DNA of 64,000 bases from Bacteroidales bacterium (lineage in GTDB: Bacteria > Bacteroidota > Bacteroidia > Bacteroidales > VadinHA17). The notes under the pieces are model-generated. The model was not told the DNA's origin. It worked only from the letters and a program-made list of their open reading frames with translations, and made no database searches. Shown here in pieces: positions 3,090-21,101 of this stretch. The stretch lies in contig DATGYZ010000031.1 of NCBI GenBank assembly GCA_035297425.1, positions 130,776-194,775 on the forward strand, given 5' to 3'. Numbering within the stretch: position 1 is the stretch's first letter; each line of letters opens with the position of its first letter. The position numbers and the translations under genes are program-made.

Positions 3090-4838
3090 TCATCTCATTA
3101 CAGGCCTTGCAATAACAAATTTACCTGAGTCTGAAATTCCCGTAAGATTTCTAAAAACTATGGTGTACATGCCGCCTGCAAGTCCAGAAACATTTATATA
3201 CAGAGGATTGTTCTCGCCGGAAACAACATCATCATAATTAACAACAAGAGTTCCGGAAGTATTATAAATTTTAATATTTACCTTACCTGTCATTTCTCTT
3301 TTGAGTATTGCCCTGAGAGTAACAGTCACAGGGTTTGGAAAGAGAAGGGGAAATTCAATATTCCGGACCTCCCTCTTCATTGCAATATTCAACATTGTTT
3401 TTTCGTAATCAGTAACAGCAACATCCGAAACAATTGTATCGCGGTAACCCATGGCAGAAAATTTCAGATTATACATTCCATTTTCAATTAGCCTTGTATA
3501 AGCACCATAGATTGTATCTGAATATACATGTGAGCTGTCATGATCATGGCCGGGGATGAATATCCTGGCTTCAACTGGCATTGATGTTGCGGCATCTGTA
3601 ATGTTTCCTTTAATGCCATACATTGCTCCTTCAAGATAACCCAGAAGCGATCTGTAATTATACTCCCAGATTAACGGCAGCTCTACAGGCGGCGTTACAT
3701 ATGGAGGATTCCGGAGATCATCAAGCTCAATTGTTATTTCCCGTCCCTGCAGCTCCCAGGTAACATAATCCTGGCGACCTCCACGCACAGGATACCAGTC
3801 CACACCTCTTGTAATACCATTGTCAAAACCGTATTCAGCACCGTTCATATAACCTTGGGGGCTGTACCTGTGAACCATGTCTGCATAATTTCTGCTTACT
3901 TCATAGAACCAGTTATCATCTGCATGGAGACTGCCCCGGAATTTAAATGACCTGTACTGGTAAATATCCCATGGATAATTCACTACCTCCCTTCCTGAAT
4001 GGAAATTTGCAGAAAGTACAAACCTGTGCTTCCTGAGAAATTTGACCATTTCAACTGTTTCTTTCTGCATTATGTTATCCTGGCCATATGGTTGTGAGGG
4101 ATCAGGAAAATTCCTGTTCAGATCATAACCTGTACTATTGAACCGAACGGGGTTTGTAATAATACTGCCAGACCTGTAAGCGCCATCAGGATTTGCAAGG
4201 GGGTTTATCCATATCTCCAGCTCATTGGCAAGCTGCCTGATATTCTGGTTCGTTCCATAATTGGATAGGATATAATCAGCCAGCCTAAGCATTAAAATAA
4301 ACCCGGCAGTTTCATCACCATGCATTGTCGATGAATAAAAAACCTCGGGCTCATCTTCATCGGCCGAAACATTATCGGATATTTTAATTGCAAGAATTAA
4401 TTTACCATTTATACTGGTGCCGATCGTATCTATTTGGCAAATAGCCGGATAATCTGATTTAAGTTTTTCAAGCATTGCAAGATACTGGTCGTATGAAGGG
4501 TATGAATCCCATGCATTGACCCCTGAAATGGATTTAGCAGTTATATCCTGACTTAAAATCCTTCTCTCTATAATCCTGTAGTTGAATTTCTGTTTGATGA
4601 ACCAGCCTGATGTCACGGGAGAAAGCCTTATGAAGATTGAGTCTCTTCTGACTTTCGATATAGATACATTTTCAGCGATCCGTGAAAAAATAAGATCATT
4701 AGTATATGGAACTGCAACCTCGGCCTCACCGTCCCGGGCTATTGACTTAATAAGAACTTCATCGGAACTTACATCCTGTGCCTGGCAACTTAATGCCACT
4801 ATGACTGAGAACATCAATATCAGCACAGTATGTTTCAT
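3090..4838 (-). CDS. M14-family zinc carboxypeptidase with T9SS type A C-terminal sorting domain
   Basis: Signal peptide. HGDETAG, NPDG and NRNF motifs of M14 peptidases. The last ~80 aa (FPNPVT...IKIYNTSG...GGMYTIVF) fit the Por/T9SS type A sorting domain. Confidence 0.8.
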   Translation of the reverse strand: MKHTVLILMFSVIVALSCQAQDVSSDEVLIKSIARDGEAEVAVPYTNDLIFSRIAENVSISKVRRDSIFIRLSPVTSGWFIKQKFNYRIIERRILSQDITAKSISGVNAWDSYPSYDQYLAMLEKLKSDYPAICQIDTIGTSINGKLILAIKISDNVSADEDEPEVFYSSTMHGDETAGFILMLRLADYILSNYGTNQNIRQLANELEIWINPLANPDGAYRSGSIITNPVRFNSTGYDLNRNFPDPSQPYGQDNIMQKETVEMVKFLRKHRFVLSANFHSGREVVNYPWDIYQYRSFKFRGSLHADDNWFYEVSRNYADMVHRYSPQGYMNGAEYGFDNGITRGVDWYPVRGGRQDYVTWELQGREITIELDDLRNPPYVTPPVELPLIWEYNYRSLLGYLEGAMYGIKGNITDAATSMPVEARIFIPGHDHDSSHVYSDTIYGAYTRLIENGMYNLKFSAMGYRDTIVSDVAVTDYEKTMLNIAMKREVRNIEFPLLFPNPVTVTLRAILKREMTGKVNIKIYNTSGTLVVNYDDVVSGENNPLYINVSGLAGGMYTIVFRNLTGISDSGKFVIARPVMR

Positions 4839-4844
4839 GTGGCA

Positions 4845-5939
4845 TCACACATTAAACCTGATGTGCAGTATATCCCCATCCTCAACTATATAATTCTTCC
4901 CTTCAATAAAAAACTTACCGGCCTCCTTACACGCATGTTCAGAGCCATATTTAACAAAATCAGGATATTTCATTACCTCGGCCCTGATAAAACCTCGTTC
5001 AAGATCAGAATGGATAACACCTGCCGCTTTGGGGGCATTCATTCCTTTCTTGATGGTCCAGGCTCTTATTTCCATAGGTCCGACAGTAAAGAAGGTCTGC
5101 AGGTTGAGCATCTTGTAAGCTGCACGTACCAGCTTGTCCACGCCTGGTTCTTCAAGACCGGCATCTTTCAGGAAGGCTGGCCTGTCATCGGGATCAAGCT
5201 CGGCTATCTCAGCCTCAACAGCGCCGGCAATGACAAGTATTACAGCATCTTTATCCTTCAGGAATTCTTTAACTCTCTCAACGTGCCTGTTACCTTTAAC
5301 TGCAGATTCTGTATCTACGTTGCATACGAACATAACAGGTTTCATTGTAAGCAGGAACAGGTCATCGATATATCTCCTGTCATCTTCCTTAACTTCGAGA
5401 GTTCTTGCATTACCAAAATTTTCCAGGTGCTCACGGTAAAGATTAAGTACTTCAATCCCGTGTTTAGCATCCTTATCGCCTGCCTTCACTGCTCTTCCGA
5501 GACGCTCAATCTTCTTTTCAACAGATTCAAGATCCTTAACCTGAAGCTCAAGATCAACAGTTTCAAGATCCCTTACCGGATCAACGGAACCATCTATATG
5601 AGGAAGATTCTCATCATCAAAGCATCTGAGAACATGAATTAGTGCGTCAGTATTACGGATGTCTGCAAGGAACTTGTTTCCAACGCCTTCGCCTTTGTTT
5701 GAACCTTTTGCGAGTCCCGGTATATCGACAATTTCAACTGTTGTATGAACTATCCTGTCAGTTGTCTGGTACTTCTCCATCTCATAAAGCCTGGGATCAG
5801 GAACCTGTACAACCCCTATGTTAGACTTGGTGGCGCTGAAAGCGAATGCATTTGTTTCGCCCTTTGTATTTGAAATACAGTTGAAAATTGTTGTCTTTCC
5901 GACGTTGGTAATACCTATAATACCGCATTGAAGTGCCAT
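4845..5939 (-). CDS. ychF: ribosome-binding / redox-regulated ATPase YchF
   Basis: P-loop GIIGITNVGKTTIFN. Full-length YchF/OLA1 architecture with a conserved C-terminal TGS-like end (DGDILHIRFNV). Confidence 0.9.
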   Translation of the reverse strand: MALQCGIIGITNVGKTTIFNCISNTKGETNAFAFSATKSNIGVVQVPDPRLYEMEKYQTTDRIVHTTVEIVDIPGLAKGSNKGEGVGNKFLADIRNTDALIHVLRCFDDENLPHIDGSVDPVRDLETVDLELQVKDLESVEKKIERLGRAVKAGDKDAKHGIEVLNLYREHLENFGNARTLEVKEDDRRYIDDLFLLTMKPVMFVCNVDTESAVKGNRHVERVKEFLKDKDAVILVIAGAVEAEIAELDPDDRPAFLKDAGLEEPGVDKLVRAAYKMLNLQTFFTVGPMEIRAWTIKKGMNAPKAAGVIHSDLERGFIRAEVMKYPDFVKYGSEHACKEAGKFFIEGKNYIVEDGDILHIRFNV

Positions 5940-16212: not shown

Positions 16213-18093
16213 TCAGGATGCATCTTCAATTTTATCCCTGCCTGGCATTAAAAGCTTCATGTATTTTTCAGAAGGTGACTGAATAATGTCGCCCGTAAAC
16301 ATATCCTTCCATTTAGTATTTACGATATCAATTGTTCCCTGGTCAGAACAGACAACATTGGGCCATTCCCTGGGAAATCCCCCTTTCCTGTAAGCTTTGA
16401 TCGTAGCATCTATAAAAAGGGAGTCCCCGGTAAACATGTGATCTCTCAATGGATCAGTGTTTGAGAGCGCCTGCCATGCAACAACAAAAAGGTCGTTCAC
16501 ATCAACAGTATCATCCACTGTGATGATAAGGGCTTTGCCATCAAGATTAATTTTCAGATACTCCCGTAAATCAGATACCCTGTTATGATTTACCGATTGA
16601 TCGGTTGCAACTATCAGAAGAGGTATGTCTTCATCCGACAGGCTGTTAAACTTTGTTATCAATCCTTTTTTCTTCATTTTTTCTGCGAGCGGTACCAGGT
16701 TCTCTCTGCTTTTGTTTTTCCCCCATTGCCCTTCTTCCTTCATCTTTACTGTAGCATCAATGCCGGCTTTGCCCCCGAACGAAAAAGCATCGGATGAGTG
16801 ATCAAGGACATCAAGCGGCCCCTTGCTGAATAAAATGTCTGACCTGAAGTCAGTATTGGAAAAAATATGCCTCAGTATAGATTTGTAATCTCTTATATCT
16901 ACATCACCGCTTACAACGGCAATATATTTTGAAAACATCATCTGGCCTGCTCCTGCAAGTGAACTGATAACTTTCATTCCCTGTCCGGGATAGCTCTTGT
17001 CGATCTTCACAACCATTAGATTATGTGCTGTTCCAGCAACCGGCATATGAAAGTCCCTGACTTCCGGTGCAAGTGCAAGCCTGACAGGTGATAAAAATAT
17101 CTTTTCAGATGCATAAGCCAGCCATGCATCTTCCTGTGGTGGTATACCGACAATAGTGGCCGGGTATACAGCATTCCTTGCATGAGTGATACACGTTATA
17201 TGAAATTTTGGATACCAGTCGGCAAGTGAGTAAAAGCCTGTATGATCGCCGAAAGGACCCTCAAAAACAAGTTCCTCCGAGGGATCAACATAACCTTCAA
17301 TTACAATATCTGCATCAGCTGGCACATAAAGATCGTTTGTAATACACTTTACAAGATTTACCTTTTTCTTCCGCAGGAATCCTGCAAGAATATATTCATT
17401 AATGTTTTCGGGAAGAGGAGCTGTTGCTGAATAAGTATAAACAGGATCGCCTCCAAGCGTAACAGAGACAGGCATAAGGGCACCTTTTGCCTTCCATGCT
17501 TCAAAATGATTTGCTCCTGTTTTGTGACGCTGCCAGTGCATGGCGGTTGTATTCCTGTCGAGCACCTGCATCCTGTACATTCCCAAATTTACCTGACCTG
17601 TAACAGGATGCTTTGTATGAACCATTGGAAGGGTAATGAACCTTCCTCCATCGTGGGGCCAGCATTTTAGGACAGGAAGTATTCCGATATCAGGATCATT
17701 GTGTATCACCTGCTGGCATATTCCTTTCCTGTCGGAATATGCAGGCATCATTCCTGAAATTTTTGATAATAAGGGTAGTGATGATAATTTTTCAAGGATG
17801 CCCTTCCGTGGTGAGCTGAGATCATTCAAAAGTGTTTCAATATCTTCACCCGCAGAATCCGGATCAGTGATGCCCAGCGCCATTAACATCCTCTTTTCTG
17901 AACCATAGGCATTAATAAGAACAGGAAAGCCTGTCCCGTTATTCTCAAAAAGCAATGCTTTACCATTGCCTCCCTTGATCACCCTGTCAGTTATTTCCGG
18001 GATCTCAAGAACAGGATCAGCAAATACTTTGATCCGCTGCAGCTCTTCTTTTTTTTCAAGGTCACCGATAAATGAAAAAAGCCCCTGGTACAT
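16213..18093 (-). CDS. UbiD-family (prenyl-FMN dependent) decarboxylase, menaquinone-pathway type
   Basis: WQRHKTGANHF, FGDHTGFYS and FIDATIK motifs of the UbiD family. 626 aa long form. Confidence 0.85.
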   Translation of the reverse strand: MYQGLFSFIGDLEKKEELQRIKVFADPVLEIPEITDRVIKGGNGKALLFENNGTGFPVLINAYGSEKRMLMALGITDPDSAGEDIETLLNDLSSPRKGILEKLSSLPLLSKISGMMPAYSDRKGICQQVIHNDPDIGILPVLKCWPHDGGRFITLPMVHTKHPVTGQVNLGMYRMQVLDRNTTAMHWQRHKTGANHFEAWKAKGALMPVSVTLGGDPVYTYSATAPLPENINEYILAGFLRKKKVNLVKCITNDLYVPADADIVIEGYVDPSEELVFEGPFGDHTGFYSLADWYPKFHITCITHARNAVYPATIVGIPPQEDAWLAYASEKIFLSPVRLALAPEVRDFHMPVAGTAHNLMVVKIDKSYPGQGMKVISSLAGAGQMMFSKYIAVVSGDVDIRDYKSILRHIFSNTDFRSDILFSKGPLDVLDHSSDAFSFGGKAGIDATVKMKEEGQWGKNKSRENLVPLAEKMKKKGLITKFNSLSDEDIPLLIVATDQSVNHNRVSDLREYLKINLDGKALIITVDDTVDVNDLFVVAWQALSNTDPLRDHMFTGDSLFIDATIKAYRKGGFPREWPNVVCSDQGTIDIVNTKWKDMFTGDIIQSPSEKYMKLLMPGRDKIEDAS

Positions 18094-18180
18094 CAGTTTA
18101 GGTATAATTCAGGTATAAAGATAATCACAATGACATGATCTAGAGAACAACTGCGAATTTTAAAGGTGATCTTAAGAATG

Positions 18181-18224
18181 AGCATAAAACAAAAATGGGA
18201 ACTAATCTTTTGGAGTAGTTCCCA
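18181..18224 (-). terminator. intrinsic terminator ending the candidate ncRNA
   Basis: 9-bp perfect stem (18196-18204 / 18216-18224, UGGGAACUA...UAGUUCCCA) followed on the minus strand by UUUUUGUUUU. Confidence 0.7.
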
Positions 18225-18680
18225 TTCACCGTTTACAACCGTGGTTGACAACGGTATCAGATTACTGTTATTATGACCGGCTGCCGATACTATGAATAAT
18301 AAAACTCAAATCAGCAACCCTGAGCTTTCAGGCTGTACTTTTTACGGCACTGCCTTCCGGCCGTCCTTTCACACACCTGCGTGTGGTACACGGGACGAAG
18401 TGTCATTCCGGCTTCACTGTTACCTCTCCCGAAGGAGCTGCAGCAATTCAGATTAATTACCAGGCCGAAACCTTTTGTCAATCTGGCCCTGTGACCCAAT
18501 CATTGAAAGAACGTTTCCGGTTTTCATCGATTTGCTGAACACCAGGATTTTCATCCCTTATTCAGACTTCGGCTCTTCTGATGCGCAGACCCGGAGGTCT
18601 GTAAGAAACGGATCCTGTTTCATTTAAGTAACCCTTTCCGTCTCCACATCATCTGAGCGGTCTTTTATCGCTCACCTGAC
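18186..18680 (-). ncRNA. candidate ~495-nt structured non-coding RNA of unassigned family
   Basis: No credible ORF. Bracketed by a consensus promoter and a terminator. Many local helices have minus-strand-specific features: UUCG, UCCG and GAAA tetraloops, plus a helix needing a G-U pair that would be C-A on the other strand. Confidence 0.45.
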
Positions 18681-18684
18681 ATAA

Positions 18685-18715
18685 CAAAGATACAACCTAT
18701 TTCTCCAAAAACAAA
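18685..18715 (-). promoter_or_regulatory. Bacteroidota sigma-A type promoter (TTTG-N19-TAtcTTTG)
   Basis: The minus strand reads gaacaTTTGtttttggagaaataggttgTAtcTTTGttat. Both consensus elements are perfect, with 19-nt spacing. Confidence 0.55.
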
Positions 18716-19013
18716 TGTTCCGGGTCGCTTTTTTGCACACCGTTTCAACAGCATTATGAGGCACCTGTTGATAACCTCGCAAATGCCCATCAAATGGACA
18801 TATGAATTTATTCAAAATAAGACAGAAATATGTTGTTTTTTACCTTTCCTTAAGGATTCAGTCAGTTGGTCATAATAAAAGATAAGTTTATCTTATTTTA
18901 TACCTGTTTGGGCAAAATTTTTCAGAAGGGGATTAAACAAACCTCGTTTTCATGGACATTCCTGTGAAAAGATGTAATTGAAGGAAATTATGACGTAGTA
19001 ACTATCTGGAAAA

Positions 19014-19091
19014 AAGGATTGAAGCGGCGTGTTTTGAAGAGAGTATACTGAAATAAGTATATACATTGCAAAACACGCCGCTTCAATCCTT
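19014..19091. repeat. perfect 23-bp inverted repeat with a 32-nt loop
   Basis: AAGGATTGAAGCGGCGTGTTTTG (19014-19036) is the exact reverse complement of 19069-19091. Confidence 0.9.
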
Positions 19092-19142
19092 CCCTTACCC
19101 TGTTTTGCCCGTCATTCCGAAGGAGACATCCGAGCCTGCAAG

Positions 19143-19530
19143 GATGACGACTGAGGAATCCCCTGCTGATTAACACGATTAGCTTTTGTCGTTTTAAGGG
19201 TTATCAAGGCTCTTCTGATGACGACTGAGGAATCCCTGCTGATTAACACGATTAGCTTTTGTCATTTTAAGGGTTATCAAGGCTGTTATGCTGACGACTG
19301 AGGAATCCCTGCTGATTAACACGATTAGCTTTTGTCGTTTTAAGGGTTATCAAGGCTGTTATGATGACGACTGAGGAATCCCCTGCTGATTAACATGATT
19401 AGCTTTTGTCGTTATAAGGGTTATCAAGGCTGTTATGATGACGACTGAGGAAACCCCTGCTGATTAACACGATTAGCTTTTGTCGCTTTAAGGGTTATCA
19501 AGGCTGTTATGATGACGATAGCAGGAATCT
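19143..19530. repeat. tandem repeat, ~5.3 copies of a 73/74-bp unit
   Basis: Unit GATGACGACTGAGGAATCCCCTGCTGATTAACACGATTAGCTTTTGTCGTTTTAAGGGTTATCAAGGCTGTTAT starts at 19143, 19217, 19290, 19363, 19437 and 19511 (last copy partial). There are only a few substitutions or indels per copy. Confidence 0.9.
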
Positions 19531-19684
19531 TCTTATTTAATCCTTCTGGAACTTTGTTTTTGAGAGAATGATTAAAGAATCGAACCCACCCAAATCCCTC
19601 AGCGGGAGGGGATTACATCAGGATAATCGCTAAGGATCAGAAATGATTTTACTGCTTATTCGCTTCCTCCAAAGGTGCAAGACA

Positions 19685-19778
19685 GCTGAATTTTAATATA
19701 TATATTAATATAGTTAATAATATATATTATAATATATAATTCAGCCCTTTCCCATAACTAGAGGGAAAGGGCTGAATA
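19685..19778. repeat. AT-rich palindromic tract plus 13-bp perfect hairpin sharing GCTGAAT arms
   Basis: GCTGAATT (19685-19692), then 45 nt that are 44/45 A/T, then AATTCAGC (19738-19745). TCAGCCCTTTCCC (19741-19753) pairs perfectly with GGGAAAGGGCTGA (19763-19775). Confidence 0.8.
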
Positions 19779-19785
19779 AAGTTTA

Positions 19786-19809
19786 AGAAGGCACTTTGTA
19801 ATGCCTTCT
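19786..19809 (-). terminator. putative intrinsic terminator of eno
   Basis: 8-bp stem AGAAGGCA/TGCCTTCT starting 9 nt after the eno stop, followed on the minus strand by a U/A-rich tail (UUAAACUUUAUU). The U-run is weak. Confidence 0.45.
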
Positions 19810-19817
19810 GCTAGCAA

Positions 19818-21101
<1,284 letters not shown>

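Follow-up and report, generated by a model that had tools for sequence, protein, structure and literature searches.

A stretch of 64,000 nucleotides from a Bacteroidales bacterium of the VadinHA17 lineage (assembly GCA_035297425.1, contig DATGYZ010000031.1, positions 130,776 to 194,775; hereafter the window) carries on its minus strand what is very probably a genuine and independent gene for a structured non-coding RNA (ncRNA) of ~495 nt. Judged by Rfam 15 and the open-access literature, the RNA probably represents an undescribed class. We consider it likely to be the founding member of a class of large ornate RNAs, single-copy and housekeeping-like across a major clade of Bacteroidales from anaerobic wetlands, sediments and sludge that includes the Prolixibacteraceae, with the loop between helices P1 and P2 and a six-helix junction forming the active centre of a new ribonucleoprotein (RNP) or ribozyme. 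The locus would thus be a stand-alone gene of an uncatalogued family of large structured RNAs, bracketed by its own promoter and terminator. It lies between the genes for enolase and a UbiD-family protein, in a gap of 1724 nt (18094-19817) without substantial open reading frames (ORFs). The original prediction, made from the sequence of the window, had described this gap as ~1.72 kb long with a single small ORF of 62 aa and a non-ATG start, and the ORF list agreed in that no frame exceeded 62 aa and most started at codons other than ATG.

Both ends of the gene are marked by transcription signals that recur in its homologues. The minus-strand promoter proposed earlier, TTTG-N19-TATCTTTG, matched the sequence exactly (18715-18685). 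The consensus for Bacteroides promoters, -33 TTTG and -7 TAnnTTTG, was reportedly described by Bayley and co-workers in 2000. Across the homologues, the -7 box TAnnTTT[GA] ended 12-13 nt before an invariant AGCGAUAAAAG in all 114 sequences with enough upstream sequence, and a TTG was found 19 nt upstream of the box, with the first T of TTTG being 89% conserved. At the other end, the terminator had been placed at 18181-18224 with a stem of 9 bp. The terminator and its U-tract are real, but the stem is stronger than first described, with 11 bp formed by AAUGGGAACUA/UAGUUCCCAUU (18226-18194) around a loop of 11 nt and followed by the U-tract UUUGUUUU (18193-18186). A simple terminator scan overlooked this hairpin because of the 11-nt loop. 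In the 30-sequence alignment described below, 99.7% of the cells in the terminator helix were paired, and six of its 11 pairs never varied. When the homologous loci were compared with nhmmer, sequence conservation began at the promoter and ended at the U-tract, so that promoter and terminator bracket one conserved block, as in an independent Bacteroidota ncRNA transcription unit. For the predicted RNA, the 5′ end was estimated by promoter geometry (±2 nt) and the 3′ end by the position of the U-tract.

The nearest UbiD relatives of the window protein were only 62-68% identical to it, and on their syntenic contigs nhmmer matched the stretch between enolase and ubiD to the window RNA at E-values between 1e-72 and 1e-88. 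The invariant 3′ motif CAGCCGGNCANAATAACAGTA was used to scan one genome per GTDB species and, likewise, metagenome contigs. The GTDB scan returned at least 119 loci, each holding one copy of the whole RNA, and the window also has a single copy. The metagenome scan returned at least 120 contigs, all of 1 kb or longer, and when 121 loci from metagenomes and the viral collection were searched with a hidden Markov model, 119 had the RNA, in one copy each. Homologues were thus abundant, the lower bound being 119 both for GTDB species genomes and for metagenome contigs. Among the matches listed, the carriers were Bacteroidales metagenome-assembled genomes (MAGs) from peat, soil, sediment and sludge together with Prolixibacteraceae, and all named carriers were Bacteroidota except for one MAG labelled Chloroflexota. 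Sunxiuqinia dokdonensis DH1, which has been cultured, is also a carrier, and complete genomes with the RNA include OY781040.1, OW818650.1, OY764960.1 and OY970346.1. The RNA family belongs to environmental, mostly anaerobic Bacteroidales/Bacteroidia. On the contig of the Chloroflexota-labelled MAG (L093, JBLNAO010000386.1), the RNA was accompanied by an enolase and a UbiD protein 96% and 64% identical to those of the window, in the Bacteroidales gene order, and this contig is probably misbinned. No match to the RNA was found in 50,697 phage and 72,556 plasmid records. The viral collection gave a single match, a partial copy on a contig of 2071 nt (L128, IMGVR_UViG_3300037613_000250), and its viral label is probably a false positive, since the RNA was absent from all of the phage records. 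An apparent insertion of ~267 nt in the copy of another locus (L072) was merely a run of N.

The fold of the RNA was supported both by its stability and by covariation. The minus-strand RNA folded to -180.3 kcal/mol, with a z-score of -6.6 against dinucleotide shuffles, compared to -141.2 kcal/mol and a z-score of -3.5 for the plus strand. Helices were derived from 87 full-length sequences by scoring how often positions paired and changed in compensation. The resulting model of 23 helices and 115 pairs (22 helices as the counting tool groups them) was tested on an independently made MAFFT alignment, for which 30 maximally diverse sequences were taken (median pairwise identity 72%). Controls were made by sliding the 3′ partners by 1-3 columns. 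Standard pairs filled 90.2% of the cells in the model compared to 30-46% in the slid controls, 62 pairs were changed on both sides compared to 24-31, and the covariation score was 0.244 compared to at most 0.098. None of 500 shuffles equalled the observed pairing and covariation values. Within the helices there were 323 G·U cells and 111 A·C cells, and the folded strand is therefore the minus strand of the window, as had been proposed from the letters of the window.

RNA positions i are converted to window coordinates as 18691-i. The molecule is closed by P1 (12-17/429-434), which connects the 5′ end with position ~430. Past P1 there is a large near-invariant internal loop in which GAGCGAUAAAA stands opposite A-N-AAUAACAGUA, and the AGUA/GAG arrangement beside P1 presumably resembles a loop-E or sarcin-ricin-type motif. 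P2 (29-32/413-416) opens onto the six-helix junction, where it meets P3 (33-36/116-119), P4 (121-125/290-294), P5 (295-298/325-328), P6 (337-344/353-360) and P7 (372-377/407-412). A three-way junction sits on P3, and the conserved strands AGCCGGAAGG and GAAAGC link P5, P6 and P7. P5 covaries between GC and UA and P7 between CG, UA and AU. P8 (435-464) and the terminator hairpin (465-497) lie outside P1. Coordinates of these and the neighbouring features are collected in Table 1.

Table 1. Features of the RNA gene and of the genes on either side, in window coordinates
Feature	Coordinates	Strand	Evidence or remark
-33 promoter element TTTG	18712-18715	minus	read directly; 19 nt before -7 box
-7 promoter element TATCTTTG (Bacteroidota consensus TAnnTTTG)	18685-18692	minus	read directly
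Predicted mature RNA, ~495 nt	18186-18680	minus	nhmmer conservation, fold z-score, covariation
P1 5′ strand UCAGGU, pairs with 18257-18262	18674-18679	minus	99.4% paired; 3 of 6 pairs double-changed (AU/GC, GC/GU/AU)
J1/2, near-invariant strand GAGCGAUAAAA, P1 to P2	18663-18673	minus	invariant in 30 sequences save one A at ≥90%
P2 5′ strand GACC, pairs with 18275-18278	18659-18662	minus	99.2% paired; second pair AU in 19, GC in 9
5′ domain: P3 closing three-way junction of P3a, P3b (conserved loop CUUAAnUGA) and P3c	18572-18658	minus	helices 3-7
P4 peripheral domain: stem GAAGU/ACUUC with branched ~165-nt insert including CCGGAAACGUUCUUUCA	18397-18570	minus	helices 8-15
3′ core: P5 (GUCC/GGAC), J5/6 AGCCGGAAGG, P6 hairpin, J6/7 GAAAGC, P7 (GGUUGC/GCAGCC)	18279-18396	minus	helices 16-19
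P2 3′ strand GGUC and J7/1, near-invariant A-N-AAUAACAGUA	18263-18278	minus	invariant alignment columns; region of scan motif
P1 3′ strand AUCUGA	18257-18262	minus	helix 1
P8 hairpin outside P1: UACCGU...ACGGUG, inner CAAC/GUUG stem	18227-18256	minus	helices 20 and 21; 8 of 10 pairs double-changed
Intrinsic terminator: 11-bp stem of nearly invariant sequence, then UUUGUUUU	18186-18226	minus	99.7% paired
Separate -7 box of ubiD, TATCTTTA, outside the RNA	18116-18123	minus	read in sequence; 22 nt from box to ATG
ubiD-family gene (UbiD-family menaquinone decarboxylase)	16213-18093	minus	
Enolase gene	19818-21095	minus	

Seven short helices had been proposed from the window alone. Five of them were conserved and showed covariation: CAGACC/GGUCUG, CUCC-UUCG-GGAG, GUCC/GGAC enclosing CACAC/GUGUG, ACCGU/ACGGU and GAGACGGA/UCCGUUUC. 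The hairpin GGAU-GAAA-AUCC is present in the window but is only the window's version of a variable, lineage-specific hairpin tip. The remaining hairpin, CCUGA-AAGC-UCAGG, had to be discarded, as it lacks conservation, has C·U in place of its U-A pair in one homologous locus (L004) and clashes with the covarying P6 and P7. Other candidate pairings were also rejected. In a local 5′ hairpin GAGCG/CGCUC (RNA 17-22/32-37), the would-be partner of J1/2, GCUC, covaries instead with GAGC at 116-119 (18572-18575) to form P3, which switches from GCUC/GAGC to GCCU/AGGC in L021 and L115; J1/2 is thus not part of a local hairpin. Two copies of CAGCCGG, at RNA 328-334 and 408-414 (18363-18357 and 18283-18277), are both complementary to GGGUUGC (371-377). 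Pairing with the upstream CAGCC copy (328-332) was uncompensated, with A·G in 13-15 sequences, whereas the downstream copy covaries as P7, and the alternative offered by the upstream copy seems to be coincidental or vestigial. In the pairing of GUUCUUUC with GAAAGGAC (179-186/321-328), the change of C328 to A was compensated in P5 (G295 to U) but not at G179, and the segment was missing from the short variants. Pairs between 20-25 and 421-427 suggested by RNAalifold had no visible support and were dropped. The raw mutual information between loops in a search for pseudoknots was dominated by one subclade of 15 sequences.

The peripheral P4 domain (~170 nt) varied in size between lineages and was lost in some, next to a core that stayed invariant. 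The extracted gene regions, which include ~20-30 nt of flank, ranged from 362 to 684 nt overall, and 87 of the 117 sequences were ~516-545 nt long. In 15 sequences of ~433-441 nt one branch of the P4 domain was absent. Among the shortest sequences (~362-398 nt), P4 had shrunk to a short hairpin in L007, L067 and L044 and to a small remnant in L079 and L118. The longest sequences (~552-684 nt), from Prolixibacteraceae and others, had an enlarged P4. The string CCGGAAACGUUCUUUCA, which lies within this domain, did not vary among the first four sequences aligned and hardly varied across the 30-sequence set. Because the domain is dispensable, the universal core consists of the 5′ domain, P5-P7 and the P1/P2 loop, and the natural deletion variants define a minimal core of ~335 nt. 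Functional structured RNAs, for instance RNase P RNA and group I introns, typically combine an invariant core with a variable periphery in this way.

The gene order L17, enolase, RNA, ubiD and SpoIIE-type phosphatase was found in ~90% of the loci, and this position raised the question of whether the RNA is a very long cis-regulatory leader of ubiD, a riboswitch or an attenuator that uses the terminator as its expression platform. In those loci the RNA lies on the ubiD strand, 8-600 nt upstream of the gene, and it ends in a terminator immediately before ubiD. However, the whole block from S13 to HisRS was syntenic in the loci examined, and adjacency to enolase and ubiD therefore says little in this clade. 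Among the matches listed, 22 loci (nine from GTDB genomes and 13 from metagenomes) placed the RNA in other contexts of at least four kinds, with an unrelated or opposite-strand gene downstream, rather than in the constant 5′ untranslated position before functionally related genes that is expected of a leader. In some of these loci citrate synthase preceded the RNA, and either an acetyl-CoA hydrolase gene or a divergent gene of the Crp family followed it. In others the RNA was flanked by a sigma-54 activator and a TetR gene, adjoined an opposite-strand PHP-domain gene, stood between proteins with a type IX secretion system (T9SS) tail, or preceded a gene whose protein sequence, judged by eye rather than by a Pfam scan, looked outer-membrane-like or aminotransferase-like. 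Furthermore, ubiD has its own -7 box. The box that had been noted after the terminator in the window was found there, and a corresponding box lay between the RNA terminator and the ATG in 145 of 146 distinct loci, compared to 26% of shuffled spacers, with a median distance of 22 nt to the start codon (interquartile range 20-24). The nearly invariant terminator stem is predicted to be constitutive. No covarying anti-terminator was found among the two candidate alternative pairings examined, neither of which was compensated. The size of 360-680 nt and the six-helix junction are also unlike known riboswitches, and no riboswitch family in Rfam 15 matched. A leader is therefore very improbable. The other contexts and the separate ubiD box indicate that the RNA is an independent gene, and the conserved terminator and the promoter in all 114 homologues agree with the independent transcript that the original prediction had proposed.

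A divergent form of a known housekeeping or large RNA (RNase P RNA, tmRNA, 6S RNA, SRP RNA, OLE, ROOL, GOLLD, HEARO or raiA) would fit the single copy, the strong conservation and promoter, the closure by P1 and the housekeeping neighbourhood, but the searches make this even less probable than a leader. With cmscan and the 4227 families of Rfam 15, nothing reached the gathering threshold on the RNA in the window or in 16 diverse homologous loci, and the only match in the window was a TPP riboswitch elsewhere. At a relaxed threshold of E ≤ 10, the window RNA gave only chance matches, to Plant_U3 (20.5 bits compared to a gathering score of 80) and to an HCV stem-loop, and at E ≤ 0.5 nothing was found on the RNA in eight homologous loci. 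ARAGORN detected no tRNA or tmRNA in the window. Bacteroidota carry an ordinary type-A RNase P RNA and tmRNA, which are easily detected by the Rfam models. The RNase P motifs GAGGAAAGUCC (CR-I) and ACAGAA..GGCUUA were absent from the RNA, as were the CR-IV/V strands of the P4 pseudoknot, and there was no match to the covariance model of type A (RF00010). Unlike tmRNA (RF00023), the RNA has neither tRNA-like ends nor a tag reading frame, and its 3′ end is the terminator hairpin and not a T-arm with CCA. The branched multi-junction fold also differs from the irregular hairpin of ~180-200 nt with a central bubble that characterizes 6S RNA. The covariance models of OLE, ROOL, GOLLD, HEARO and raiA matched neither the window nor the homologues. 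The family thus stayed unassigned, as the original prediction had it after considering RNase P RNA, tmRNA, SRP RNA, 6S RNA and riboswitches. In open-access full texts, searches by topic and with exact strings of 13-17 nt from the invariant motifs returned nothing relevant.

Conservation might also stem from a small protein gene on either strand or from a conserved DNA regulatory region, and some assemblies do have gene calls of 50-141 aa on or beside the RNA stretch, with the longest ATG-initiated frames reaching 117-120 aa in a few homologues. However, these gene calls had no Pfam matches, and a search on both strands across the homologues revealed no conserved ORF. The longest frame had a median length of 43 aa on the strand of the RNA and of 55 aa on the other, with none above 62 aa in the window. 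Substitutions were compensatory within the helices, G·U pairs were tolerated on one strand only, and insertions and deletions fell within hairpins, all of which makes a coding or DNA-level origin extremely unlikely. The RNA is therefore mis-annotated as protein-coding where such calls were made. Hypothetical ORFs were called on or overlapping the RNA gene in L004 (5367-5519, plus strand; 5509-5934, minus strand) and L005 (5129-5281, plus strand; 5565-5819, minus strand), and in L008 a frame of 62 aa (4597-4785, minus strand) was called just upstream of it. Equally remote is a derivation from mobile or defence elements, be it as a remnant of a group II intron, an omega RNA of IscB/TnpB, the ncRNA of a retron or an ornate RNA carried by phages. 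Many large orphan RNAs, among them HEARO, GOLLD and ROOL, are associated with mobile elements, and one viral-labelled contig of 2 kb carries the RNA. In contrast, each locus had a single copy rather than several and its housekeeping surroundings were stable, no reverse transcriptase, IscB, TnpB or integrase gene adjoined the RNA in the loci examined, no intron or omega RNA model of Rfam matched, and the phage and plasmid records lacked the RNA.

The likeness of the RNA to OLE, ROOL, GOLLD and raiA is only loose: all are large and intricately folded with no assigned role, and the RNA failed every membership test examined. Like OLE RNA (RF01071, Bacillota), it is ~500-600 nt long, single-copy and chromosomal, combines many covarying helices with near-invariant single strands, and is restricted to a lineage of mostly anaerobes, and OLE was likewise without a known function at its discovery. 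However, OLE belongs to a different phylum, has no sequence or structure match to the RNA and lies inside an operon with the genes of partner proteins (oapA and others), whereas no conserved partner gene was seen here. ROOL (RF03087) and GOLLD (RF01998-type) are also large multi-domain RNAs with no ORF, an orphan function and a variable periphery around a conserved core. In contrast to the housekeeping locus of the present RNA and its absence from the phage and plasmid collections, they are often borne by phages or prophages near tRNAs, and no covariance model linked them to it. With type-A RNase P RNA the RNA shares a stand-alone gene with promoter and terminator, closure by P1, a multi-helix core whose joining strands are invariant, and a periphery in which helices have come and gone between lineages, but it has none of CR-I to CR-V and is confined to part of one order instead of being universal. 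The raiA motif and other orphan ncRNAs from the Breaker and Weinberg groups resemble it in coming from long, relatively GC-rich intergenic regions (GC-IGRs) with covariation and their own terminator, but the present RNA is roughly twice as large as the raiA-type RNAs and occurs in other taxa. It was not present in the GC-IGR survey papers searched, nor was it found when the open literature was searched with sequence strings. To our knowledge, bacterial RNAs of ~500 nt with such covarying helices and invariant joining strands are rare, with fewer than ~15 classes by our count. Such large RNAs with known roles have proved to be ribozymes or RNP machines. As for ROOL, GOLLD and OLE, cryo-EM has revealed homo-oligomeric assemblies consisting of RNA only (PMC12286853).

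Several observations weigh against an independent RNA of a new class with a function of its own. No conserved partner protein or target was found, an earlier description may sit outside the open-access text, and both ends of the RNA were placed from sequence signals alone. As ~90% of the copies lie directly upstream of ubiD on the same strand, read-through of the terminator or a local role may occur there. The variable hairpins P4e and P5a were only 43-45% paired in the MAFFT alignment, in which they are probably mis-registered. On balance we favour the independent gene, and the RNA would then act in trans and not on the neighbouring ubiD. The invariant nucleotides of the loop and the junction would form a binding or active site, and P4 may serve as a stabilising peripheral element. 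The terminator hairpin may be part of the mature RNA and be recognised sequence-specifically, since its sequence hardly drifts. As to the function itself, a role as an RNP scaffold or subunit is tentatively predicted. With no conserved partner or target, this idea is drawn only from analogy with other large, sequence-invariant RNAs. A catalytic RNA is an unlikely alternative prediction, and a trans-acting sensor of a ligand or of another RNA is as doubtful.

Widely distributed among Bacteroidales MAGs of peat, sediment, soil and sludge, the RNA adds to the short list of large orphan bacterial RNAs. Because one carrier is cultured (S. dokdonensis DH1) and natural variants of the ~335-nt core exist, the RNA is experimentally tractable. 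A covariance model built from the alignment would correct the annotation in hundreds of genomes.

Other elements were observed in the window and in the homologous contigs. Between enolase and the RNA promoter, the window has a tandem repeat with a 74-nt unit (19143-19518, minus strand; 5.1 copies, 95% matches), which occurs nowhere else in the window; one unit taken alone folds weakly. The distance from enolase to the RNA is ~1.1 kb in the window and ~50-1,060 nt elsewhere, usually 60-400 nt. As nearly all of the spacers in other species are too short for ~1.1 kb, the tandem-repeat stretch looks like a lineage-specific insertion. Downstream of enolase and the tandem repeat, a near-perfect inverted repeat of 27 bp followed by UUUUUU (18990-19115, minus strand; -54.4 kcal/mol, z = -8.9) resembles either a palindromic element or a terminator of great strength, and it accounted for spurious matches to microRNA precursors in the relaxed Rfam search. 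In an uncultured Sunxiuqinia (L075, 1923-2091, plus strand), a sub-threshold match to the Vibrio antisense RNA V_AS7 was found far from the RNA (58 bits compared to a gathering score of 90, E = 2.4e-8). The TPP riboswitch of the window is a canonical one (RF00059; 59809-59907, minus strand), with 67.5 bits compared to a gathering score of 54.3.

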